DNA of 64,000 nt from an uncultured Lachnoanaerobaculum sp. (GTDB lineage: Bacteria > Bacillota > Clostridia > Lachnospirales > Lachnospiraceae). Position 1 is the stretch's first letter, and each line of letters starts with the position of its first letter. The translations under genes were made by a program, and so were the position numbers. Below, one piece after another: positions 4,198-17,037 of this stretch. The notes beneath the pieces are model-generated. The model had not been told where the DNA came from. It worked only from the letters and a program-made list of their open reading frames with translations, and made no database searches. The DNA is taken from NCBI GenBank assembly GCA_937925515.1, contig CALALP010000044.1, positions 5,184 to 69,183 on the forward strand, in the 5' to 3' direction.

Positions 4198-7100
4198 CTA
4201 TCCCCTATTATTTGGAACTACAATTTTTTCTAGCTTACTATTTGCATCTTCAGACGGTTTCACACCAATTCCTACATTCATAGCATTGTCCTGAAGTCTA
4301 AATGGAACATTTGCGTAACTAAAGAATCTTTGAGAAGTAAATCTTCCACCAAATCTTATGCCGACTGCATTATCCTTAAAACTTTGTATAAATTTATAAC
4401 CTGAAACCTCACTTATTTCATTATCATTTAATTCAATAAAGAAATAGAAATTATAGTGATAGCCCTTATCGCCAACCAATGTTTCAAGCACCTTTAATGC
4501 GTTAAATGCCTTAGACTCCCTATTATATATTTCCTCTAAAAAGCCTCTTATATTTGGAATGAATACTGCAATATTTTTATAACCTGACATTGCCTCAAAG
4601 AAATCTTCATTTTCCAAGTTCTTAGCCATACATTCTTTCTTAGTTACAGCTCTAATTCCTGCCTCCTTATGTAAGGTATCCTTGGTAAAGTCATAAATTT
4701 TTTCAGCACTGTCTATATAATTTGCTGATATATTTAATGCTGTATTCTTAAATTCCTCAGAACCAATCTCTATGATATTTACATCTGCTTTCTTATCTGC
4801 AAATACATGCATTAAATGCCTCATATAAGTTGACTTACCACTTTTTTTACTTCCACTTACTACATAAGTAAGTAGATTGGTAAGTTCTATAAATGAATAG
4901 CTTGCATTTTCAGCATCATAACCTGTTGCAATAGTTCTTGGATTATCTAAAAGTAATTTATAGCTTTCCTCTTTTATATAATCTTCCCAAGTAGGATTTT
5001 CAGGGATTACAGGAACTTTTCTTGCTCCAATTCCACTATCAATTTTATTAATCGCCTTAATTCTTTCTTTGATATTAGAGTTTCTTTCAAAACTTCCCTC
5101 GCCCTTGCAAGCAATAGCAGTCTGAAATTCTATAATCTTTCCTGCAAAATGTACAAGTCCTCTACCTGCAACAGCACTTTCAGGATATACAGGCGTTCTT
5201 ACAACTCTCATTACATCGCTATATTGATAAATGTCAGACATTTCAAGTGAAATAGTGGTTCTAAAATTATCTGCAAGTCGCATAGGAAGTTCAGCATTGG
5301 CAAAGCTTGCAGCAGTAACTACTAAGTAAATACCATAGGAAATGCCCTCTTTAGCAACTCTTTTAATTATATCCTCAAACTTTTCATCAGTCTTTTCTCT
5401 AAAACCTGCATAATTGTCAATGACTATAACTATTGCAGGTAACTTTCCTAGACCATGTTCTACATAATCCCTAAAATTACTTGATGCCAATATTTTCTTT
5501 CTATCAGCAATTATTGTATTTAGCATTGTAAAGAACTTAGCTATTTTATCAATGTCTTCTTCCTTATCAGTCATAATGCCACCGACTTGTTTAGCATTTT
5601 CAAATACTGTCAATGCTTTAGAACTAAAATCAATTATATAGAAATTTATCTCTTCAGAGGAGTATTTATTTATAAAGGCATATATGGCAGTTTGTAAAAA
5701 TGTTGACTTACCTGTTGCAACTGTTCCACATATTGCATGATGCCCACCATTTAAGAGGTCTAATCTAATACTCATCTGATTTTGATTTTCAGGGTCATCT
5801 CCCTTGCCTACCATTACAAAAAGACTAAATTCATTTTCTGCATTTTCAAGTCTTTGCTTAAGTTCTAAGTCTATATATCCGTCAAGTTCATTTAAAGTTA
5901 TAAAGGTCGGAAGTACAGGCAACCACAAATGTATATCTCTGATATAGCCATGTTTTTTAGCTACTGAAAGCAAGTATTCATTAATAGCCTCAAGTTGGCT
6001 CTTTACCTTCATTTCAGGTAACTTAATCTTATTTTTTAATGCTAATTCCATAATAAAATCATACTTATCTTTAGTAGTGTTACTAAGTTTATATTCTTTA
6101 AAAATTTGTGCAAAATCTCTAAGCCTTGAATCATTATAAGAATTTCTAGGATAATCATTTTTAACTTTTGTTATATGGCTATAAACATTATCCAAAAATT
6201 CCTCACTATAACTATATTCGGATATAGCATTAGCCTGTATTTTAAGTTTACTTAATGTATCTTCCATTGCTAAGCAAATCAAGTTTATCCAGTTTTTCTT
6301 TGCTTTTTCTTGATGTAATATCTTGGTATAATTTCCTACTAAATCTACCTTTGCAGTAGAATTTAGAAGTTGTGCTACTACAAACTTAGCATTTCCAATG
6401 CTTTCATCATAAGTTGCTCCTGAATAACCTGATTGAAAAAGTTCAAAAAGTTCATCATTTCCAACTTGCAAAAAGCCTCGTCCTGCTTGTGTAAGATATG
6501 CTGCATCAGGTCTATGTAACATATCCATAGAATCTTGTCTATCTTGAACTCTAAGACATAATCTGAATTTAGAGTTTGACCATATATTGTCATCTACTGT
6601 ACCTGCCGGCTTTTGAGTAGATAGTATTAGATGAACCCCAAGACTTCGACCCACCTGTGCAACTGAGATAAGTTCACGCATAAAGTCAGGTTCTTCTCTT
6701 TTTAGCTCTGCAAACTCATCTATAATTATAAATATATGAGGTATAGGCTCTTTAACATCTCCATTTTTATAAAGGGTAGTATAGGCATTAATGTTATTTA
6801 CACCACATTCAGTAAACATTCTCTGTCGTCTTTTATTTTCAGACTTAATTGAAATCATGGCACGCTTTACTTGGTTTCCTGAAAGGTTTGAAATAGAGCC
6901 TATCATGTGTGGTAATTTCTCAAAAAGATTTGCCATACCACCACCTTTATAGTCTATGATAAAGAAACCAATGTCATCAGGACTATAATTTATAGCAAGA
7001 GAAAGCATATAAGTCTGCAAAGTTTCAGATTTTCCCGAACCTGTTGTACCTGCTACTAAGCCATGTGGACCATGATACCTTTCATGTATATCGAGATAAC

Positions 7101-9195
7101 AAGGTGTGCCACCATTTTTAACACCTATCATAGCTTTCATAGAGGCGACAATATTGGAACGCCTCCACCTCTCCTCTGCCTTAAGTTCTTCAGGTCTTGC
7201 AATATCATACATATCAAAAAAGCTTATTGCATTTGGTATTTCTCCTCCACTTTCAGCCTCTCCAAGCTCAATGTTAGCTAGTTTAATTGCAAATTCCTGT
7301 AAACTGTCCTCAGAATTTTCATCAAACTGTATATTAATTTTTTCAATATTTTCATCTTTAGTAGAATACATTCCTGAAAAGTCGGCATTTTTCTCTATAA
7401 TAAACTCACAACTGTTAGGCACTTCCTTATATGAATCTACTGCTATAACTGTTGAAAAACCTAGTTCTGAGCTATTTTCAGAGATATATTTGGAAATGAG
7501 TTCGCCTGATAAAATTTCCTTATCCAAAATGAAAATCACATAATAAGGTCGTCTACTTGCTTTTTCTTCCTCACTTCTAGTCCTTATAGTTTGACCTAGT
7601 TGATAGAAAATCTCTCCTGCCCCTGCTTTATCACTTGCAAAATATCTAATCTTCTTATCTTCTGACCAAAGATGAGGTAAATGTTTTACGAAATTCCATT
7701 CTTTTTCATCTGAAAGTTTATTTTTATCATAAGCAAATACTAGCTTTAAATCTGTATAACTGTTACTGCCTGCAAGCTGAATGATTAGGTTTTTTATAAG
7801 ACTTTTCCAAGCACCACGCTCTCCTATACAAGCTACAAAGCCTTTTTCCTTTAAATCAACGCCCATAGGCACAAATTTCATCATTTTATATTGTTCTTTG
7901 ATAGCCTTTGGCTTATCTGCCATATCATCATCTATCATAGAAAACTTTTCTTTTTGTACTTCTATATTTACAGGAAATGGTTCATCTCCCATACCAAGCC
8001 TACAAAAAAGGACATCTTTTTGCCTAAAGTTTCTATTCCAAAGTTTTTCCTCTGAAGTATCATATCTAAGCACCATATCAGCAGACGGATATTTTTCACG
8101 CTGTATTCTTGTATACTCATTAAATAAGCTATCTATATAAAGCTGTTTCTTTTTAAGATAATCTCCGTACTTAGCTCTTCTCTTTTCCTCGTCTTGTTTA
8201 TCCTTTTCTTTGGCATACTTAAAATTACGCCTTGCCCAATAAGTGCCTATACCAGCTGAAACTACTGCTGTAATCATTCCTGTCATCATAAATAGACTTC
8301 CACCCATAGAAGAACTCATATTAGCAGCGGCTACAGTAACGCCTGTACCAAGTAACATAGGAAGTGCCATAGTTATAGACGGGCCTATTATATTAAAAAG
8401 CGGTGTTTCCTGTGTATCTTTTGGATTTGGTGGTGGGTCTATGGTAATAACTTCATCATCAAGCTTAGGGATAATTCTAGGGGCTCTATGAAACATTTCC
8501 TTTTTAATATTAGCTTTTTTATCCCCTGACGGCACAAGTGCCTTTAACTCACTACTACTAAGCTCAGAAAGTTTTACCTCTCCTTTTTCAAGAAAACTTA
8601 CTGCTAATATATCTCCAAGATAAACAATAGTTAAACCGAAAGTTCTTATTGTATCAGCAAAGTTAAGTTCAGCTGTTTTCTCAAGTTTAATGTCATTTAA
8701 GAAAACTCCTTGACTATGAACATTTATAGTAGCTGATTTTCCATTTTTTATTAGGTCAAATGCTGTTTTTAATAAACTTTCATTTACACTTTTTGATAGA
8801 GAAGTATTAGTGTAATGTATATTAAAGCTATTATCAGTTCCAACCTTAAGGTTACTTCCATTTTCAAAGGCATATTTTTTAAATATAGCAAACTCTTCTT
8901 TTCTACTTCCTACTACAAGTTTTATTTCCTCTCCATAAGAAGTTTTTATATTAATGCTACCATTTCCACCAAGATCAATATACTCTAAAACCTCGCTGCT
9001 TATTTTAAAGGAATTAACTCCCTTAGGTCTATAAAGCCTCCAAGTCCCCTCAATATTCTCACAATTTAAGATAAGAGATTTATATAAATGAAAATCTTTT
9101 TCATTTATAACTATATTTGTTTCAAGTCTGACATCTTCTTGGAGTAAAACCTCCTTAAATGCCCAAGTATTATAGATGTAGATGTATTTATTCAT
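4198..9195 (-). CDS. essC: EssC/YukB FtsK-SpoIIIE family T7SS ATPase
   Basis: 1665 aa; three P-loop ATPase domains (GTTGSGKSE, GTVATGKST, SGSKKSGKST); TM segments after the N-terminal domain; locus context. Confidence 0.9.
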   Translation of the reverse strand: MNKYIYIYNTWAFKEVLLQEDVRLETNIVINEKDFHLYKSLILNCENIEGTWRLYRPKGVNSFKISSEVLEYIDLGGNGSINIKTSYGEEIKLVVGSRKEEFAIFKKYAFENGSNLKVGTDNSFNIHYTNTSLSKSVNESLLKTAFDLIKNGKSATINVHSQGVFLNDIKLEKTAELNFADTIRTFGLTIVYLGDILAVSFLEKGEVKLSELSSSELKALVPSGDKKANIKKEMFHRAPRIIPKLDDEVITIDPPPNPKDTQETPLFNIIGPSITMALPMLLGTGVTVAAANMSSSMGGSLFMMTGMITAVVSAGIGTYWARRNFKYAKEKDKQDEEKRRAKYGDYLKKKQLYIDSLFNEYTRIQREKYPSADMVLRYDTSEEKLWNRNFRQKDVLFCRLGMGDEPFPVNIEVQKEKFSMIDDDMADKPKAIKEQYKMMKFVPMGVDLKEKGFVACIGERGAWKSLIKNLIIQLAGSNSYTDLKLVFAYDKNKLSDEKEWNFVKHLPHLWSEDKKIRYFASDKAGAGEIFYQLGQTIRTRSEEEKASRRPYYVIFILDKEILSGELISKYISENSSELGFSTVIAVDSYKEVPNSCEFIIEKNADFSGMYSTKDENIEKINIQFDENSEDSLQEFAIKLANIELGEAESGGEIPNAISFFDMYDIARPEELKAEERWRRSNIVASMKAMIGVKNGGTPCYLDIHERYHGPHGLVAGTTGSGKSETLQTYMLSLAINYSPDDIGFFIIDYKGGGMANLFEKLPHMIGSISNLSGNQVKRAMISIKSENKRRQRMFTECGVNNINAYTTLYKNGDVKEPIPHIFIIIDEFAELKREEPDFMRELISVAQVGRSLGVHLILSTQKPAGTVDDNIWSNSKFRLCLRVQDRQDSMDMLHRPDAAYLTQAGRGFLQVGNDELFELFQSGYSGATYDESIGNAKFVVAQLLNSTAKVDLVGNYTKILHQEKAKKNWINLICLAMEDTLSKLKIQANAISEYSYSEEFLDNVYSHITKVKNDYPRNSYNDSRLRDFAQIFKEYKLSNTTKDKYDFIMELALKNKIKLPEMKVKSQLEAINEYLLSVAKKHGYIRDIHLWLPVLPTFITLNELDGYIDLELKQRLENAENEFSLFVMVGKGDDPENQNQMSIRLDLLNGGHHAICGTVATGKSTFLQTAIYAFINKYSSEEINFYIIDFSSKALTVFENAKQVGGIMTDKEEDIDKIAKFFTMLNTIIADRKKILASSNFRDYVEHGLGKLPAIVIVIDNYAGFREKTDEKFEDIIKRVAKEGISYGIYLVVTAASFANAELPMRLADNFRTTISLEMSDIYQYSDVMRVVRTPVYPESAVAGRGLVHFAGKIIEFQTAIACKGEGSFERNSNIKERIKAINKIDSGIGARKVPVIPENPTWEDYIKEESYKLLLDNPRTIATGYDAENASYSFIELTNLLTYVVSGSKKSGKSTYMRHLMHVFADKKADVNIIEIGSEEFKNTALNISANYIDSAEKIYDFTKDTLHKEAGIRAVTKKECMAKNLENEDFFEAMSGYKNIAVFIPNIRGFLEEIYNRESKAFNALKVLETLVGDKGYHYNFYFFIELNDNEISEVSGYKFIQSFKDNAVGIRFGGRFTSQRFFSYANVPFRLQDNAMNVGIGVKPSEDANSKLEKIVVPNNRG

Positions 9196-9232
9196 ATTTT
9201 ACTCCGTTTGTATTTTTGCAAATGATAGTGCT

Positions 9233-10561
9233 TTACTTTTTCCTATAAGTCGTAGTACCACCTTTTTCTCCAGTATCAAAAGTAGCCTCTACTGTAAATA
9301 CTCCATTTGATATAGTGCCATTCCAAGTTATAGTTGAACCATTCTTTTTGATAGTTATTTGATTTCCTTTAACTTTCCATTTAAAAGGCTCTACATAATC
9401 TGAATATTTATTATATTCATGTCCTGTTCCGTCCTCTTTTAGTATTTTCCCCTTGCCTTCAATTTCCTTATCAATATTCCCCTCAGCATCAGTTGAATCT
9501 ATCAACTCATAATCCCCTGCAATATCCTCTATTGTAATTTCAGTTTCTTTACTTCTTTTACGCCTCCTTGTTTCCTCGGAATTATCAGAATCATCAGAAT
9601 TATCTGCAACATAATTATCACTATTATTTTTTATTCTATCTTTTGCTACAAAGACTAATGCAAAAATCAAAATTATACATATCGGAATTGAAACAAGCAA
9701 AGCCTTAGAACCTTTTTTATTTCCACTTGAAACCTTAATAGTACTACTTCTACCATTATCTTTTGTACCCTCAAGTGCATTCAACATTTTATCTGCACTC
9801 TGATACCTTTTTTGCTGACTTTGAGAAGTAGCCTCATCTACTATCCTTTCAAGAAATTGTGGAAGTTCCGGATTTATTTTCCTTATAGGTTTTATCTCAT
9901 AAGGTGGCTCAGAGGGATTCTTTCCTGTGAGCATATAGTACAGGATAGTACCTAAACTATATATATCAGATGTTGCATCTATCTTTACATCTATTGACTT
10001 TGATAAACGCTCAGGAGATATATAGCCTCTAATACCACTTCGCATTACATAATTTTGATAGTCATTATTATAACTATATACAGAGCCAAAACCTAAAAGC
10101 ACCACTCTACCGTCAAGCTGTACTATAATATTATCCGGAATAAGATTTTCACAATAATAAGGCTTTTCCTGATTATGTAGATATGAAAGCACTGAACAAA
10201 GTTGCTTAGTATAAGATACAGCATTTTCTGCTAATAAAGCACCATTTGCTTGAAGATATGTAGAAAGCTTATTTCCCTCTACATACTCCATTACAATATA
10301 CACAAAATCTCCCTCTTGAATCACTTCATAAAATATAGGAAGATTTCTATGCCTAAAATTTGCCAATTTCCTAATATCTTCAACAAAATAATTCCAAGTA
10401 ATCGGACTTCTGTCATTTAAGCTTTCTCTACCAATCTCTTTGATTGCAAGTTGCCTATTATTCATTTCATTAAAAGCAAGATATACAGTATTGCTACTGC
10501 TTTTATCAAGTTGCTTTAATATTCTATATCCACCATTTAATAAACTTCCCTCTTTTATCAT
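9233..10561 (-). CDS. essB: EssB/YukC T7SS membrane protein with pseudokinase N-domain
   Basis: 442 aa; N-terminal protein-kinase-like fold (YRILKQL...LAIKEI), a single central TM (LLVSIPICIILIFALVFVA), extracellular C-domain; immediately upstream of essC. Confidence 0.7.
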   Translation of the reverse strand: MIKEGSLLNGGYRILKQLDKSSSNTVYLAFNEMNNRQLAIKEIGRESLNDRSPITWNYFVEDIRKLANFRHRNLPIFYEVIQEGDFVYIVMEYVEGNKLSTYLQANGALLAENAVSYTKQLCSVLSYLHNQEKPYYCENLIPDNIIVQLDGRVVLLGFGSVYSYNNDYQNYVMRSGIRGYISPERLSKSIDVKIDATSDIYSLGTILYYMLTGKNPSEPPYEIKPIRKINPELPQFLERIVDEATSQSQQKRYQSADKMLNALEGTKDNGRSSTIKVSSGNKKGSKALLVSIPICIILIFALVFVAKDRIKNNSDNYVADNSDDSDNSEETRRRKRSKETEITIEDIAGDYELIDSTDAEGNIDKEIEGKGKILKEDGTGHEYNKYSDYVEPFKWKVKGNQITIKKNGSTITWNGTISNGVFTVEATFDTGEKGGTTTYRKK

Positions 10562-10581
10562 ATAAGCCCCCTATCTACTCC

Positions 10582-11052
10582 TTAATCAGTTACTCCATAT
10601 TTAGTAAATACTTCATCAAAAAGTGCTTTATTATCTATGTAAGTCTGATTATTTTCTATATTAGGAATATTCATCAAATCTTTTTTCATAATCTTAGCGT
10701 CCCATGAAAAATCCTTATCTCCAGAATAGTCTTTAAGTAGTTCGGCAAAAGGTACATAAGTACCTATATAGTTAGGAAAATCATATATATTTAGGGCATA
10801 TGTAGTTTCTGCCATTTCATAATCGCCAAACATTTTATAAATATTTGCACTTATGTTTTTGACTAAAAGCTCCCACATAATGTCATCTTTATTAGCATAA
10901 ATAATAGCTGTTTGTAACTCTTCATTTTCAACCTTTGTATCTTCTGAATTATTTTCAGTTTTACCATTACAACCAATTATCATAGATGCTGACAACCCTA
11001 TAACTGCTAATAAATAAAAACTTTTTTTGAAAAAACTATTATCCTTAACCAT
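10582..11052 (-). CDS. Lipoprotein of unknown function, first gene of T7SS operon
   Basis: Signal peptide with lipobox (LSASMIIGC-NGK). Confidence 0.5.
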   Translation of the reverse strand: MVKDNSFFKKSFYLLAVIGLSASMIIGCNGKTENNSEDTKVENEELQTAIIYANKDDIMWELLVKNISANIYKMFGDYEMAETTYALNIYDFPNYIGTYVPFAELLKDYSGDKDFSWDAKIMKKDLMNIPNIENNQTYIDNKALFDEVFTKYGVTD

Positions 11053-11392
11053 ACCCTTTCTCCTTTTTATTCAAAATTTATTTTAGTAAACTTATAAATT
11101 TCATAGTATTATAAATTACTTATAATTATACTTGTATTACCAACCTTTTTCAATACAATTCAACTATATTTTTTAAATAAAAACAATGATTTACTAGAAA
11201 AATAATACATTGCCAAAAAATATATAGAGCAATTATTGTAAAATTTTTAACTAATATCTATAAATTATCTTTGCTTAATTTTTATCTTAGATATAGCCTA
11301 ATTATAACAGTTTAAAGTTTTTTTCAATGTTTTGTTGATATAATGTAAGTTTTTTAGGACGAAATGCAGAGTTGGATATTGTATTTATTTTA

Positions 11393-11426
11393 TAAAATAA
11401 AAGAGCAACTTTTACACTGCTCTTTA
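11393..11426 (-). terminator. Putative rho-independent terminator after the TOPRIM-like gene
   Basis: 7-bp stem AAGAGCA/TGCTCTT with 10-nt loop; on the minus strand followed by TTATTTTAT. Confidence 0.35.
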
Positions 11427-11431
11427 ACTAA

Positions 11432-11953
11432 TTATTTTAATATCTTCTTTATGCCACTTTGTAAATCAGAAAAACTACTCTTAGGTTTGGTTATCCACAT
11501 TTTACTAATATCAAAATTAGTTCTAATTAGATGTTCTTTTAAATTTTTACATTTAATAAATTCGCTTTTAAAATCTTTAGGACTCTTACAATTAATCAAG
11601 CTTTCAATTTTATTACTAATATTACAACACCTACATAATTCATCTTCAAAATTATTTACTTGTGGTAGTATTATAACCTCTTTTATATAAGATTTTTTCT
11701 CTAAAAATTTAATATTACTATTTAGTATATCAGCACTACAAGTATCTGTATCAAACACTAAAACAATTATAGTATTCTTTTTCAAATTTATTAAATGGCT
11801 ATTTTTTAGTTGTTCTTGAACTACATTAAAACGCTTAATTTTACCTGCTTGTATTAAATCTAGTTCATTATGAAGAACCTTGATAAATATTTCCTCAGTT
11901 TTTCCCTCAACATAATATTCATAGATAACATTCTTTTTACTTACATTTCTCAT
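11432..11953 (-). CDS. Small TOPRIM-like protein (DUF4276/RloB-like), putative nuclease partner of the upstream ATPase
   Basis: About 173 aa; N-terminal VEGKTEE (conserved Glu), then LVFDTDT (DxD) about 50 residues later, the TOPRIM pattern. RBS AAGGAAG before the ATG at 11953; overlaps the ATPase stop by 17 nt. Confidence 0.6.
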   Translation of the reverse strand: MRNVSKKNVIYEYYVEGKTEEIFIKVLHNELDLIQAGKIKRFNVVQEQLKNSHLINLKKNTIIVLVFDTDTCSADILNSNIKFLEKKSYIKEVIILPQVNNFEDELCRCCNISNKIESLINCKSPKDFKSEFIKCKNLKEHLIRTNFDISKMWITKPKSSFSDLQSGIKKILK

Positions 11954-13049
11954 AATCAATATACTTCCTTATGTGTTCTACATTTGGAGAGTGTAAAAAA
12001 ACATCATTATCAATAGCATTCTTAAGTGAATCTGTTGATTTTTTTAACTTATCAGAGGCTGAAACACACCTAATTTTTACATCGCAACTGTCCTCTTCTT
12101 TTATCAAAAAAGTAAATGCATGTTTTGGTAAATTTATATTTGCAATGTCTAAATTATGAGTTGTTATAAATAACTGTTCATTGTATTGTAAATTAGCTAT
12201 CATAACATTTATTAATTCTCTTTCTATATCACTATGTACATACACAAACTTTTCATCTAAATAATAGAAACCATTTTTATGCTCAATAAGTGCAAATAAA
12301 AAGTTAGCAATATCTATACCGTCTTTTGTACCACTTGACAACATTCTTTCATCTAAAAGTCTTCCATTTTGAATATAAATTTTACTTTTACAAGTTTCTA
12401 TGGCATAGGTATCATTGTCATGGTCAATTTCTTTAATCCCAATAATTGAACTATCTAAGGTTTTTAGTACATCTTCTAATACTTTAAAATATTTGTCATC
12501 TGTATCTTCAATTTCTAAATCTTTTATATTATCTCTCTCCGGATAACTAAACCTCCAACCAAATCTATGTATATCTCTTAAATCGCTATTTGCACTAATG
12601 GATTCTATTCTTTTAGAACAAGTTTCATAACTATCATTCTTCCATATATTAATCATTTTTACTTCTAATTGTATATCATCTAAAGTATATCCAAACTCAT
12701 CATTAATAATTGGAATATTCACACTAACTCTAAAAAACTTTTCCTCATTAGTTGCAAAGTCAATAATAAAACTAGATTCATTTGATTTATCTATAATTAA
12801 ATCTACTAGTTTATCCACATTCCTTTTAGTAATAAAATTAAATATATTCATAAGGACTTTCCCTAGAGATGTCTTTCCGGTAGCATTTGTTCCAAATAAT
12901 ATATTAACCTTTTTGTATCTAAAATTTTCAAATCCTTTCAGATGTTCACCCTCAACCATACTATCCACTATTTTTCTTGGATAAGTAAAATTAATATGAA
13001 AATCATTGAATTGCAGTAAATTATTTACTTTTAAATCTAGCACTATCAT
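11937..13049 (-). CDS. AAA_21/ABC-like ATPase (RloA/AbiLi/OLD-N/AriA-like)
   Basis: Walker A GTNATGKTS, signature-like LSSGTKDGIDIANF, Walker B FYYLDE, H-loop ITTHN. Best start is ATG at 13049 (MIVLDLK) preceded by AGGAGG; the ORF-track start at 13112 lacks an RBS. Confidence 0.75.
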   Translation of the reverse strand: MIVLDLKVNNLLQFNDFHINFTYPRKIVDSMVEGEHLKGFENFRYKKVNILFGTNATGKTSLGKVLMNIFNFITKRNVDKLVDLIIDKSNESSFIIDFATNEEKFFRVSVNIPIINDEFGYTLDDIQLEVKMINIWKNDSYETCSKRIESISANSDLRDIHRFGWRFSYPERDNIKDLEIEDTDDKYFKVLEDVLKTLDSSIIGIKEIDHDNDTYAIETCKSKIYIQNGRLLDERMLSSGTKDGIDIANFLFALIEHKNGFYYLDEKFVYVHSDIERELINVMIANLQYNEQLFITTHNLDIANINLPKHAFTFLIKEEDSCDVKIRCVSASDKLKKSTDSLKNAIDNDVFLHSPNVEHIRKYIDYEKCK

Positions 13050-13186
13050 ATTATACCTCCTATGTATAAATTCCGATTTTGAGAAGTTATACATATTAAG
13101 TATAAAATACAATTATATTTTTTTCAATACTTTTATGGTATGGTATGTTTAAGAATATATAATTCTTTATCCTAGCAAACATAAAA

Positions 13187-13226
13187 AAAGAATGATTCAC
13201 ATATACATGAACCATTCTTTTAGTTT
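13187..13226 (-). terminator. Rho-independent terminator downstream of TasA-like gene
   Basis: Minus-strand reading: about 12-bp stem AAGAATGGTTCA/TGAATCATTCTT (one mismatch), loop TGTATATG, then TTTTTTTATG. Confidence 0.5.
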
Positions 13227-13314
13227 AACATTTACTTAATTCCAAAATCACTTATTGACCTTGACCGTCTTTAATCTTCCAATACTCTCGTATTAATTAA
13301 GGCTTAATAGGTTT

Positions 13315-14346
13315 TTATGGTTGTGGCTTTTGAGGTGTTTTTGCGTTTCCATTCTGCTTTTCAAGAATGTTTGGCTTAGCCTCTTTCTTTCCTATATTGA
13401 ACTGATCCCAGTTGAATTGAATGTCGATATGAGCGATTTGATTCTGAGAATCTGAATCACCTCTAGTTTCAATCATCTTGTCAGCTGTACCTGTTGTATA
13501 CTTACCGTCTAAATCAGGATCCATAGCTATACCAAGGTATAAGTCCATTCTACGGTTTGTCTCAGGGCTTGTATAGATTTCAGCATCCTTGATTGCATCC
13601 TTAATCTTCTTAGCATCTAAATTCTTGAGTGCTGATAATCTTAAGAAATCAACTCCACCTACTCTGAATACATCTTCTTGCTTAGCACCAAGGCTCTTAA
13701 CTAATGCAAATGCTGCATCCTCTCCTGTGATTCCGTCGCCTTCTTTATGAACATAGATAGCAACACCGAGTAACTTCTCAACTGTATCTGTGCTAAGTCC
13801 ACCATTAGCAGCCTTTGAACTTACAATGAACTTGATGTTGCTTAACTTAGCTGCAACAGTTCCAAGGCTTACGATGTCTGTACGGAATGCTTGTGCATAA
13901 CCAGGATAAATGTTGTTAATATCAACACCTATGTTGTGGCTACCGTTTGTATTTGTTGTAAGATAAGGTCCAACCTGTCTCTTGATAGGCTCAGCATCCT
14001 TAAGTTCAGCTGAGAAATCAATATTGTTGTATTTCTTAGCACGATCTTTGTATTGTTGAATAGAACCGTCCTTAGCAATCTTGTTATAATTGCTTGTTCC
14101 TCTTAAGAAGAAATCTGAAGGAACATAACCCTTATCGCCAACTCCGTCAACTATTGACCAACCGTGATTCTCATCACCATATTGTGCATAAAGACCTAAG
14201 TCTACGAACTGTACATCAAAATCTCCTGTGGTTGCCTTTGACTGGATATTAAGTGTCTTTGTCCATGCTGCATAACCTGTACCTGTTAATACCATTGCAA
14301 GTGCTAATGCACCAGCGATAATACTCTTCTTGCTTGCTTTTCTCAT
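13315..14346 (-). CDS. Secreted TasA/camelysin-like protein with SipW-cognate-type signal peptide
   Basis: 343 aa; N-terminus ...ALAMVLTGTGYAAWTKTL, compare B. subtilis TasA ...GGGTWAAFNDIKS. Confidence 0.55.
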   Translation of the reverse strand: MRKASKKSIIAGALALAMVLTGTGYAAWTKTLNIQSKATTGDFDVQFVDLGLYAQYGDENHGWSIVDGVGDKGYVPSDFFLRGTSNYNKIAKDGSIQQYKDRAKKYNNIDFSAELKDAEPIKRQVGPYLTTNTNGSHNIGVDINNIYPGYAQAFRTDIVSLGTVAAKLSNIKFIVSSKAANGGLSTDTVEKLLGVAIYVHKEGDGITGEDAAFALVKSLGAKQEDVFRVGGVDFLRLSALKNLDAKKIKDAIKDAEIYTSPETNRRMDLYLGIAMDPDLDGKYTTGTADKMIETRGDSDSQNQIAHIDIQFNWDQFNIGKKEAKPNILEKQNGNAKTPQKPQP

Positions 14347-14489
14347 TTTTTCTCCTATCCTTGATTAGTATAATACGAATCTAAGTTTTTTTATAATTTT
14401 TTTGCCAAATCGATTTGCTATAATTAATTTTACCATAAAACTAATAAATAACATTGTACTTTAGTATTATTTTCATATACTCCTTTAGT

Positions 14490-15866
14490 TTATCTTTTTT
14501 CTCTTGATACATAAACTATATCCTTTGCATAAAGATAGAAACTACCCTCCACAGGGAGTTCTTTTTCATCAAGGCTATATAAAACAGGTTGTCTTATTTC
14601 ATCGGCAATCATAAACAAATCCTCTATTTCAGCCACTTCCACTAAAGTTCTATCTTCAAAACTTGGTAGTACAACTACATTTACCATTCTACTCATATTC
14701 TTTTTAAGAGATTTCTTTAACTTAAGTTCATATTTTTCTTCTTCATTAGGTACTTTTGTAAATAATAAAATATATACTACTAAAGCTACTCCTATTATAA
14801 ATAATACTACTCCTGCAAAGAAAAATAGAGGGCTATTTTTAACTACTTCCTCAGTGGTTGTATTTACTTGTTCAACTTCATCTTTATCTTCAGGCTTTAA
14901 TATTGAATAATATGGGTTACTATCAAGTATATTCATAGTTACTTTTGATTCAAAACTTTTATCAGCAGGCGAAACTTCATCATTTACATGGATTGTACCT
15001 CCAAATACAAGGTAAAATTCCTTATCAGTAGCACCTCCAAGTATTTCCTCAGCCTTAGTAACTTCTTCTAAATATTGAGTGGGCTTAATTTCAATGTTTT
15101 CATCAACAACTACATTAGTATCAGAGTTTTTTGTTATATTTGAACTCTTAAGTCTAAATCTCTTTTCATATATTGGAGTTTTGCTTTCAGCATCTTTTTG
15201 AAATCCCTCAATAACAGCATCTATATAATAATCTCCACTAAAATTAAGTGTTTTACTTGTTTTAAGTTGTGAACTAAAGTTTACTGAAATAAAATCAGTA
15301 ATTTTCTTTGAATAAATCTTACCCTCATCGAGATACTCGTCTGATATTAATTCATTTCCCAAGAGTTTAACTTTATATTTGGAAGTATTTTTAAATGTGT
15401 ATGTATATAACAAGTTACTTTTTTCTTCTGTTTTAGACTTACTTCCAAAGTAAAAACATACTCCTGCAACTCCCATAAACAATACAACAGAAAAAATTAT
15501 GCCTAAAATCCTGGTAAGACTTGAAATTGCTTTTTTTTCAAAGTTAAATTTTTGACTTAACTTTTCTTTGTTTTCACTATCTGCATTATCTGCATTTTCT
15601 TTATCTATAATAGTTTCTTGTTTTGCAACATCTTCTTTATTTAAATCTTCTTTATTTAAGTCTTTTTCACCTGAAATAACATTTTCTTTATCTGAAACAA
15701 TGTTTTCTGCATCTGAGACAACATTTCCTTTATCTGAAATAATATCTTCTTGCTTATCTAAATTTTCCCCCTGACTTGTATCTTCAGGGTGTATTTTATC
15801 TGACTCTATTTTATCAACTGTATCTACATTTTTATTTTGTTTCTTCTTTTTTCCCATAATCCACAA
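14490..15866 (-). CDS. Membrane protein of the SipW/TasA-like locus, 2 TM segments with a large extracytoplasmic domain and a low-complexity acidic N-terminus
   Basis: 458 aa; TM segments near residues 118-140 and 345-368; N-terminus rich in D/K/E/N repeats; 35-nt overlap with the SipW gene. Confidence 0.4.
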   Translation of the reverse strand: MWIMGKKKKQNKNVDTVDKIESDKIHPEDTSQGENLDKQEDIISDKGNVVSDAENIVSDKENVISGEKDLNKEDLNKEDVAKQETIIDKENADNADSENKEKLSQKFNFEKKAISSLTRILGIIFSVVLFMGVAGVCFYFGSKSKTEEKSNLLYTYTFKNTSKYKVKLLGNELISDEYLDEGKIYSKKITDFISVNFSSQLKTSKTLNFSGDYYIDAVIEGFQKDAESKTPIYEKRFRLKSSNITKNSDTNVVVDENIEIKPTQYLEEVTKAEEILGGATDKEFYLVFGGTIHVNDEVSPADKSFESKVTMNILDSNPYYSILKPEDKDEVEQVNTTTEEVVKNSPLFFFAGVVLFIIGVALVVYILLFTKVPNEEEKYELKLKKSLKKNMSRMVNVVVLPSFEDRTLVEVAEIEDLFMIADEIRQPVLYSLDEKELPVEGSFYLYAKDIVYVSREKR

Positions 15867-17037
15867 CTCCTTCCGGTATGTCTGATTGTTTTTTTGTCAT
15901 CATAATAGGTATTCCTATCTTGGGTATTACTGCTATGTATTTTCCATTTACCTCTGAAATTTCAACTTCATCATCATCGATAGAAAAATTATTATCTCCT
16001 TTAGTTATAAATTTAATATTTCCTGCCTCATCTTTTTTAATATCCACTATTCTATGTGTTATAACAATGCTATCTCTATAAAAATTTATAACTGTTCCCT
16101 TAGTAAAGCTTTCTATTTCTTCCTGATTTTTAGGTTTTTGTATTAGAATGACATCTCCGGGCTTAATTTTAGGTAACATACTACCTGTAAGAATGACTGA
16201 CGGATAGATTGGGAATACTCCAACGCAAAACCACGAAAACATTATTGTACCAAAAAGTCCCACTACATATCCAACTGTAACCTTTTCATCTCTTACTCTT
16301 CTCGTTCCGTCTAAAACTTGTGAGGTTTCATACATAATCATTGTATAAATAGCAGGAAATACTATTCCTATTGCCGCCTCTGCAAGCCAATTCAAATCAG
16401 GTAAATATGGAAACATATGTATAAATAATTCTTTTACAAGTATATAAGAAATTGAAGAAATTGCTCCTCCATAATAGGATAAAGTAGTAAGCAGTATACT
16501 ATCCATAATTGCAGGAACTGCATATTGTGCTAGGTATATGACTATATCTTTCTTTTCCTTAGCTTGACTAATGTTTCTCAATGAAATATCAGATAATAAA
16601 ATCACTATAAAAACCACAAAAAAATACCATAGCTTTTTCTTTTTCCAACTTGCTGCTATGGCATATTCTCTTATTTTCTCCCTTGCTATAAGAATGGGAA
16701 TAATTGAAATAAAGGTGTTAAATAATCCCTCCAAAGATAAATCATAGGGCGAGAGTTTTATTTGTGATAAAATTGCACCTACAACATACTTTATTGCAAT
16801 AAAAATAAACGCTCCTGAGGCTGCTGAAAAAGCTATCCTTGAGTGCATTACCACCCTACCTGAAACATAAAGTTTAGGTAGGGTAATTAAAATGGCAAAT
16901 AATGTAATCCAATAAACCATTACTATATATGGATACTCTATGATAAACTTTGAAATGATTGGAATTTTAGATATACCAAACAAAATGACAAATATAAAGG
17001 CATATATAATATAATATTTATTTTTCTTATACTTCAT
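15832..17037 (-). CDS. sipW: SipW-type (archaeal/ER-type) signal peptidase I fused to an N-terminal polytopic membrane domain
   Basis: C-terminal 130 aa carry box B SVILTGSMLPKIKPGDVILIQK (catalytic Ser) and box D VITHRIVDI (His). The N-terminal ~270 aa contain ~8 predicted TM helices of unknown family. Confidence 0.7.
   Translation of the reverse strand: MKYKKNKYYIIYAFIFVILFGISKIPIISKFIIEYPYIVMVYWITLFAILITLPKLYVSGRVVMHSRIAFSAASGAFIFIAIKYVVGAILSQIKLSPYDLSLEGLFNTFISIIPILIAREKIREYAIAASWKKKKLWYFFVVFIVILLSDISLRNISQAKEKKDIVIYLAQYAVPAIMDSILLTTLSYYGGAISSISYILVKELFIHMFPYLPDLNWLAEAAIGIVFPAIYTMIMYETSQVLDGTRRVRDEKVTVGYVVGLFGTIMFSWFCVGVFPIYPSVILTGSMLPKIKPGDVILIQKPKNQEEIESFTKGTVINFYRDSIVITHRIVDIKKDEAGNIKFITKGDNNFSIDDDEVEISEVNGKYIAVIPKIGIPIMMTKKQSDIPEGVVDYGKKEETK

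Follow-up and report, generated by a model that had tools for sequence, protein, structure and literature searches.

A mobile gene pair in an uncultured Lachnoanaerobaculum probably encodes a compact, split OLD/AbiL-like module of ABC ATPase and TOPRIM nuclease

Systems that pair a stand-alone ABC ATPase with a stand-alone OLD-type TOPRIM protein are well known and include AbiL, RloAB, PARIS, HEC-01 and the NetFlax D29:D44/D60/M70 pairs. In PARIS, AriA sequesters AriB and releases it once a phage protein binds, and the authors of that work call AbiL-type systems structurally distinct (PMC10802264). Killing by P2 Old needs both of its activities, and tRNA cleavage is now reported for AriB as well as for P2 Old. 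In F. nucleatum, AbiLii is toxic and the cognate AbiLi does not neutralise it; the lactococcal AbiLii showed no toxicity in E. coli. Here we describe a two-gene pair of this kind in a 64,000-nucleotide (nt) stretch of DNA from an uncultured Lachnoanaerobaculum sp. (contig CALALP010000044.1; hereafter the window, in whose numbering all positions are given). A previous inspection of the letters (the sequence-only reading) had proposed a split OLD- or AbiL-type ATPase with an unusually small TOPRIM partner as a candidate anti-phage pair. Our analysis indicates that the pair is probably an autonomous, horizontally mobile conflict module of ABC ATPase and TOPRIM nuclease, in effect a compact split OLD/AbiL-like system.

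Gene 1 (13049..11937, minus strand) encodes an AbiLi-like ABC ATPase of the Rad50/SMC/OLD clade with 370 amino acids (aa), and gene 2 (11953..11432, minus strand) encodes a small partner of 173 aa, predicted to be a TOPRIM nuclease of the OLD type that ends in a short helical tail. Each gene starts at an ATG behind a ribosome-binding site (AGGAGG and AAGGAAG, respectively), and the two are translationally coupled, with an overlap of 17 nt (11953..11937); both open reading frames (ORFs) and their overlap were confirmed on the reverse complement as first reported. The genes are real rather than chance ORFs, having large sets of homologues and motif residues that are invariant across diverse members. 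All features of the pair given below likewise lie on the minus strand.

Gene 1 encodes the head of a Rad50/SMC-type ABC ATPase, in which every nucleotide-binding motif is present. Every motif previously read from it (GTNATGKTS, LSSGTK, YYLDE and TTHN) is in the translation, and their order is canonical, running from Walker A (G53-T60, GTNATGKT with K59; 12870..12893) through the ABC signature (L237-T241, LSSGT; 12327..12341) and Walker B FYYLDE with the D-loop His272 (12234..12269) to the H-loop (T296-N299, TTHN; 12153..12164). The positions invariant in 37 homologues are G53, N55, A56, G58, K59 and T60 of Walker A, L237, S238, G240 and T241 of the signature, F261, Y262, Y263, D265, E266 and H272 of Walker B and the D-loop, and T296, H298 and N299 of the H-loop. 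From the Walker B D265, His272 lies at +7 and H298 at +33, the same spacing as in P2 Old, where D299 is followed by the D-loop H306 at +7 and the H-loop H332 at +33. The structural model has the ABC head fold and contains neither a long coiled coil nor a long helical insert.

Homologues of the ATPase number more than 979 proteins, with E-values down to 1e-108 at about 48% identity, and the protein passes the Pfam AAA_21 cut-off (30.5 bits versus 27). Its best PADLOC model by far is AbiLi (PDLC02335, 2.4e-20), and the matches to AriA, PDC-M12A, HEC-01A/02A, PtuA and mad8 are far weaker. The PADLOC result supports the reading of gene 1 as a stand-alone OLD/AbiL-type ATPase. The label "OLD-like" is fair at the level of the clade, the ATPase being no closer to OLD than to PtuA or Rad50. 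A search of PDB sequences with the ATPase gave no match, and hhalign against the single P2 Old sequence placed the motifs in the same register with a score that was not significant.

The AlphaFold2 model of the 173-aa partner is a confident four-stranded α/β fold (pLDDT 92, pTM 0.87) and runs β1(10-15)-α-β2(37-41)-β3(61-68)-α-β4(90-98)-α, followed by the short helical tail. The VEGKTEE (E16, E20) and LVFDTDT (D68, D70) motifs behind the original TOPRIM call are both present, with D68 lying 52 residues after E16. Across 75 diverse members of the partner family, E16, D68, D70, N80, E103, K129 and W153 are invariant, Y13, G17, E20, G37, N43, Q98, N101, E105 and L142 are conserved in at least 90%, and R108 is the majority residue at its position. 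The stretch E16-G-K-T-E20 (11894..11908), at the C-terminal end of strand 1, would provide the TOPRIM Glu for metal A and the +4 Glu for metal B, roles assigned by analogy to E400/E404 of Bp OLD. The DxD motif D68-T-D70 (11744..11752) stands at the C-terminal end of strand 3, the acidic cluster N101-F-E103-D-E105 (11639..11653) just after strand 4 contains candidate metal-B ligands, and the invariant K129 (11567..11569) in the C-terminal helical region is a candidate equivalent of K562 in Bp OLD and K550 in P2 Old. The active site of such α/β folds sits at the C-terminal ends of the strands and in the helices that follow, and the acidic residues of the partner all lie either at the C-terminal end of a parallel strand or where the next helix begins.

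The catalytic sets of OLD nucleases comprise E400/E404, D455xD457, T506xE508 and K562 in Bp OLD, E377/D381, D431xD433, S478xE480 and R487 in Ts OLD, and E398/E402, D453xD455, D541xE543 and K550 in P2 Old. When correspondence is set by sequence order and secondary structure rather than by superposition, the partner family offers E16/E20, D68xD70, N101xE103 and either K129 (invariant) or R108 (majority), which suggests a one-to-one match between its invariant residues and the OLD two-metal nuclease site. The VEGKTE of the partner is identical to residues 397-402 of P2 Old, and the catalytic spacers are shorter here, with 33 residues from D70 to E103 versus 51 in Bp OLD and 86 in P2 Old. The weak Pfam matches that recur in the partner family are all of TOPRIM type (OLD-like_TOPRIM_1, OLD-like_TOPRIM, DUF3226 and Toprim_2), and the recurrent weak PADLOC matches are to AbiLii, HEC-01B and the GajA C-terminus; the AbiLii model PDLC02337 matches the window's partner at 4e-4 and 19 bits over profile positions 30-90 of 170. 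The likeness to the DUF4276/RloB family drawn in the sequence-only reading has no profile match behind it: RloB, DUF4276 and DUF4435 matched none of the 75 members. We consider it highly likely that gene 2 encodes a TOPRIM nuclease.

Fold searches do not separate the partner from generic Rossmann-like folds, and the protein could instead be a non-nuclease adaptor of Rossmann-like, receiver-like or nucleotide-binding type whose acidic residues bind metal or phosphate for signalling. We regard such an adaptor as quite unlikely. A receiver domain would show a sheet of five strands and the pattern D-D-T-K rather than ExxxE...DxD...NxE...K, and the motif set and strand order of the partner appear to match those of OLD nucleases residue for residue. 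The weak hidden Markov model (HMM) matches go to several TOPRIM families and never to receiver or PRTase families, and the obligate partner of the protein is an ATPase of the OLD/AbiLi clade. The sequence-only reading had named the joint absence of any TOPRIM match and of an acidic triad as fatal to the TOPRIM prediction; we found weak TOPRIM-type matches and a conserved acidic set that falls at the strand ends of the confident model.

A profile of the partner gathered 948 clusters at 50% identity, 685 of them at E <= 1e-10, and among the best 150 of the 948 clusters nearly all lengths are 160-185 aa. The family belongs mostly to gut and oral Firmicutes and occurs also in Bacteroidaceae, Spirochaetes, Melainabacteria, Acinetobacter and phages. 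It was matched in 183 of 185,579 GTDB species representatives, including Lachnospiraceae, Oscillospiraceae/Acutalibacteraceae, Erysipelotrichales, Sphaerochaeta, Bacteroidaceae and Gastranaerophilales/Melainabacteria. Gene linkage was counted over 80 genomic loci kept from the GTDB scan, and the ATPase lies directly upstream of the partner in 79 of them, the exception being at a contig edge; the pair is almost never separated. There is no third conserved gene, the 136 nearest flanking proteins falling into 112 Pfam families. Some HTH regulators, HicB and HEPN toxin-antitoxin parts, integrases, recombinases and transposases are found in the flanks, together with scattered PADLOC defence matches.

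Phages, prophages, plasmids and unrelated chromosomal sites all carry the pair, which moves among them. Homologous pairs are carried by the mobilizable Acinetobacter plasmid pYH12207-5, by the Acinetobacter prophage Ab105-3phi, where the pair is next to the integrase, and by the human-gut phage NatCom_17901 (PV036423, 5001-6600), where it is encoded on the opposite strand and separates the portal gene from that of the large terminase. In all three records the partner is a homologue (hhalign E 1.6e-46, 1e-15 and 1.7e-14), and the ATPases match AbiLi at 9.5e-23 to 1.4e-29. Another homologous pair sits in a polysaccharide gene cluster, and one has as its neighbour a Tn916-like element that includes a resolvase and an integrase. 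Both proteins are held in PHROGs (phrog_5836 and phrog_10204) as families of unannotated function. The original idea of a mobile defence pair is borne out by the unrelated contexts and by the phage, prophage and plasmid carriage as far as mobility goes, defence itself being a presumed role. A fixed, universal housekeeping position, which had been set as one observation that would refute the proposal, was not seen across genomes: the family is present in few species, in unrelated contexts and on mobile carriers.

Among 18 loci in IMG/VR, 14 are complete pairs, 1 is cut by a contig end and 3 are degraded remnants. One of the phage remnants (6211-6486 of its contig) is a 91-aa C-terminal fragment of the partner beside an SNF2-like helicase, and two other phage contigs hold short degraded fragments of both the ATPase and the partner. 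These remnants indicate that the module has decayed as well as spread. As for NatCom_17901, this phage belongs to the Heliusvirales, and a moron between packaging genes is an unusual site for cargo.

An ABC ATPase joined to a TOPRIM protein is also the composition of RecF-RecR, and a mobile accessory of DNA repair or recombination, built like that pair or like Rad50-Mre11, would be another way to account for these loci. We think this very improbable. The distribution is patchy, covering about 0.1% of species; phages and plasmids carry the pair, and the ATPase gene is inactivated by insertion in natural strains (below). The sequence has no RecR-type Cys4 zinc finger or helix-hairpin-helix, and its putative catalytic acidic residues are fully conserved, unlike those of the non-catalytic RecR. 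In NCBIfam there was no match to RecF, RecR or any repair family, and a RecF-RecR identity was rejected on this and on the spread just described.

Variation within the window's own species adds to the picture of a mobile conflict module. A broken allele that leaves a 42-aa ATPase stub is present on 24 metagenome contigs of the same species. It stems from a foreign element inserted in some strains at ATPase codon 34 (GGT, 12948..12950), with the insertion point GAGGGT^GAACAT and GGT flanking both sides. The stub contigs end 23-137 nt past the junction, within the inserted element, and the right-hand junction is found on another contig of the same sample, where a gene caller predicts a protein of 351 aa whose N-terminus is foreign. 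The element showed no terminal inverted repeats, and neither the window nor IMG/VR contains its ends. The partner gene downstream is intact in strains with the disrupted ATPase. In other alleles the partner itself varies, a 63-nt segment encoding L33-H53 (11795..11857) being present in 2 or 3 tandem copies that yield in-frame proteins of 194 aa and 215 aa. In the predicted TOPRIM fold this repeat falls between strands 2 and 3, and a short TTTAATA microhomology flanks it. The broken and repeat-bearing alleles show that the module is dispensable and variable in nature, which fits an accessory conflict gene and not a housekeeping gene.

Several results weigh against the reading of the pair as a mobile ATPase-nuclease module. 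No TOPRIM HMM reaches its curated cut-off (OLD-like_TOPRIM_1 scores 22.3 versus 27 and DUF3226 17.3 versus 27). OLD-like_TOPRIM_1, OLD-like_TOPRIM and DUF3226 each match 3 of the 75 members at E <= 0.01, and PADLOC AbiLii matches 14 of the 75, with a best value of 2.8e-5. Foldseek with the partner returned nothing at E <= 1e-3, and hhalign of the partner with the single P2 Old sequence aligned the motifs at a score that was not significant. The putative clustering of the acidic residues in space is read from secondary-structure positions alone. The partner profile found one spurious Integrator match among PDB sequences and nothing else; this empty search says little, because the TOPRIM region of P2 Old itself likewise retrieves no OLD entry of the PDB by sequence, these domains being too divergent. 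An attempt at an Old TOPRIM profile yielded 4 proteins from the homologue search, and the viral scan gave only relatives with at least 73% identity.

On the side of mobility, most genes directly beside the pair in other genomes are not recognisable as defence or mobile genes, a proportion that has no background rate behind it. Within the species, every intact contig retrieved by way of the flanking genes has the pair in one and the same position, at 98.6-100% nucleotide identity, and exact look-ups of two flanking genes revealed no empty site. A metagenome scan with a flanking protein gave a single short contig, and the GTDB scan gave no copy from the window's species, whose representative lacks the pair or is absent from the collection. 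The comparison of neighbourhoods that had been suggested supports the proposal through variable contexts across genomes and broken alleles within the species, and not through presence or absence at a single site in the species. Finally, the related HEC-01, also an ATPase with a TOPRIM protein, gave no protection in E. coli.

The same HEC-01 result can be set in favour of a pure addiction module, in which the TOPRIM protein would be a toxin and the ATPase its antitoxin, the pair stabilising its mobile elements with no role in phage defence. Two Firmicute AAA(D29):TOPRIM_OLD pairs of the NetFlax study, from Clostridium algidicarnis and Streptococcus agalactiae 2603V/R, acted as toxin and neutralising antitoxin in E. 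coli, and AAA-neutralised pair(s) screened against a phage collection gave no positives (PMC10440598). The occurrence of the present module on a plasmid, in prophages and at an integrative element would suit such a role. We nevertheless hold pure addiction to be unlikely. It overlaps with abortive-infection defence rather than excluding it, PARIS being both, and the pair of the window is chromosomal and not on an obvious element. Strains also tolerate an ATPase broken at codon 34 with the nuclease gene intact, which would be unexpected for a constitutive toxin unless the insertion is polar; the disruption argues mildly against a constitutively toxic partner, and a polar effect explains it equally well.

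By analogy, the pair is most likely one more phage-defence module of the abortive-infection or toxin-antitoxin type, and we hypothesize a mechanism modelled on PARIS, P2 Old, Gabija and the NetFlax AAA:TOPRIM_OLD pairs. The ATPase would dimerise on ATP and hold or gate the nuclease until a phage-derived cue, which may be a protein or an aberrant state of DNA or replication, is sensed and alters the state of the ATPase. An ATP-dependent rearrangement would then free or activate the TOPRIM effector, which would cut nucleic acid, whether by DNA nicking or by tRNA cleavage, and so abort the infection; a phage-borne pair would exclude competing phages. A more specific version of this conflict module can be offered tentatively, and we find it rather doubtful in its full detail: the partner may be a minimal, stand-alone OLD-type two-metal nuclease of a distinct and unnamed defence family (PHROGs 5836 and 10204), caged and released by an ABC head that has no coiled coil, and serving in gut phages as a moron that excludes competitors, possibly by tRNA cleavage.

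If the conflict module is confirmed, a widespread family will join the catalogue of ABC-ATPase/TOPRIM immune modules. With Pfam and PADLOC below significance for its nuclease half, the pair would probably escape HMM scans of the PADLOC kind. At 370 and 173 aa and without a coiled coil, it would be a convenient minimal system in which to study how an ABC head controls an OLD-type nuclease. It opens no new category of biology, and a specialist would not be surprised by it. The sequence-only reading could not place the architecture among named systems; the family is indeed unannotated, and it is less exotic than that reading implied, being already in PHROGs and having precedents in AbiL, PARIS, HEC-01 and the NetFlax AAA:TOPRIM_OLD pairs.

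The signals around the two genes are consistent with a discrete cassette. Upstream, a terminator-like hairpin of the preceding 343-aa gene (13186..13221, minus strand; a 16-pair stem followed by a T-run) marks the cassette's boundary, and downstream an intrinsic-terminator-like hairpin from the hairpin scan (11400..11425, minus strand) would close the operon. Terminator-like sites exceed those in shuffled sequence, with 2 found versus 0.3 expected. The promoter-like site TTGAAA-17-TATACT for the two-gene operon (13099..13127, minus strand) matches the consensus at 10 of 12 positions and nothing more, and the region does not contain more promoter-like sites than shuffled sequence does. GC content across the pair is 22-26% versus about 31% for the window, and Rfam gave no RNA family in the cassette or adjoining it. 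Two flanking direct repeats, D1 and D2, were considered as att sites and dismissed because both matches are weak and AT-rich and fall on promoter-like TTGAAA boxes.

The gene just downstream of the pair (10582-11052) encodes 156 aa in the window and in some strains and 479 aa in most others, a difference due to a 965-bp indel with its junction near 10925-10928. The 156-aa product has a lipoprotein-like N-terminus and matches no Pfam family. In the intergenic region downstream of the pair, at about 11124, two independent assemblies start exactly at 11124 and a third at 11072; the shared contig starts hint at a branch in the assembly graph and so at strains that differ where the cassette ends downstream, although no alternative arm was recovered.

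A type VII secretion-like locus adjoins the pair (4198-10561 of the window and downstream), comprising a 1665-aa EssC/FtsK-SpoIIIE ATPase, a LytTR protein and two WXG100 proteins, and a 442-aa Ser/Thr kinase is immediately adjacent. The type VII-like locus has no evident link to the ATPase-TOPRIM pair. On the other side, an upstream operon (13315-17037) encodes the 343-aa secreted protein, a DUF5305 protein of 458 aa and a 401-aa multi-pass membrane protein; no Pfam match is on record for the 343-aa and 401-aa proteins. Judged by eye only, the operon seems to include a TasA/camelysin-like protein and a signal-peptidase-like C-terminus and resembles a fibre operon of the TasA/SipW type. All large ORFs in the part examined (4198-17037) are on the minus strand, GC skew is negative in nearly all 1-kb bins and the cumulative value is -15 over the 64 kb; the window appears to lie in one replichore and to be read against its leading strand.

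Comparison with fused OLD nucleases covered class 1 (P2 Old, Ts OLD), class 2 (Bp and Xcc OLD) and class 4 (GajA). P2 old, like several homologues of the present pair, is prophage-carried. An OLD enzyme is one polypeptide of about 520-740 aa that includes a dimerisation insert, whereas the window holds two separate, overlapping genes that total 543 aa (370 + 173), and neither half has a statistically significant sequence match to the OLD family. Classes 2 and 4 have a helicase partner, and the window family has no conserved helicase neighbour. A fused OLD nuclease of classes 1-4 was rejected for the window, where there are two genes, as there are in 79 of the 80 loci. Septu and Gabija were rejected as well, the partner being no HNH protein and the loci having no conserved third gene in the manner of the PtuB HNH protein or the GajB helicase.

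PARIS has the same two-protein composition and differs in its parts. AriA measures 53-55 kDa and has coiled-coil legs that form a hexamer, compared with an ATPase of 370 aa here that matches the AriA HMM partially, at 3e-8. AriB is given as 35 kDa in PMC11464382, and the 173-aa partner is, as the sequence-only reading had noted, much smaller, at about half that size. The AriB/DUF4435 models matched none of the 75 partner members, and the pair falls outside the PARIS definition. The PADLOC candidate HEC-01 resembles the pair in that its HEC-01A and HEC-01B models match both proteins weakly, at 7e-5 and 1e-4. The NetFlax AAA(D29):TOPRIM_OLD(D44/D60) modules are likewise small two-gene units of ATPase and TOPRIM_OLD in Firmicutes, a likeness drawn from their description.

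AbiL of L. lactis pND861, compared here through its PADLOC models rather than through AbiLi and AbiLii sequences, has the same bicistronic layout, in which the gene of an ABC ATPase precedes that of a separate OLD-type TOPRIM protein. AbiLi PDLC02335 is the best match of the ATPase in the defence library, and AbiLii PDLC02337 is the model that the partner family matches most often. The partner matches AbiLii marginally, along roughly a third of the profile, AbiLi has about 450 aa (PMC13064643) versus 370 aa here, and tblastn with either protein in PLSDB found no lactococcal plasmid. The family is closest to AbiL on the ATPase side and smaller than the characterised examples, and the pair is a compact, uncharacterised addition to the known conflict modules of ABC ATPase and TOPRIM protein, among which the NetFlax pairs are compared by description.

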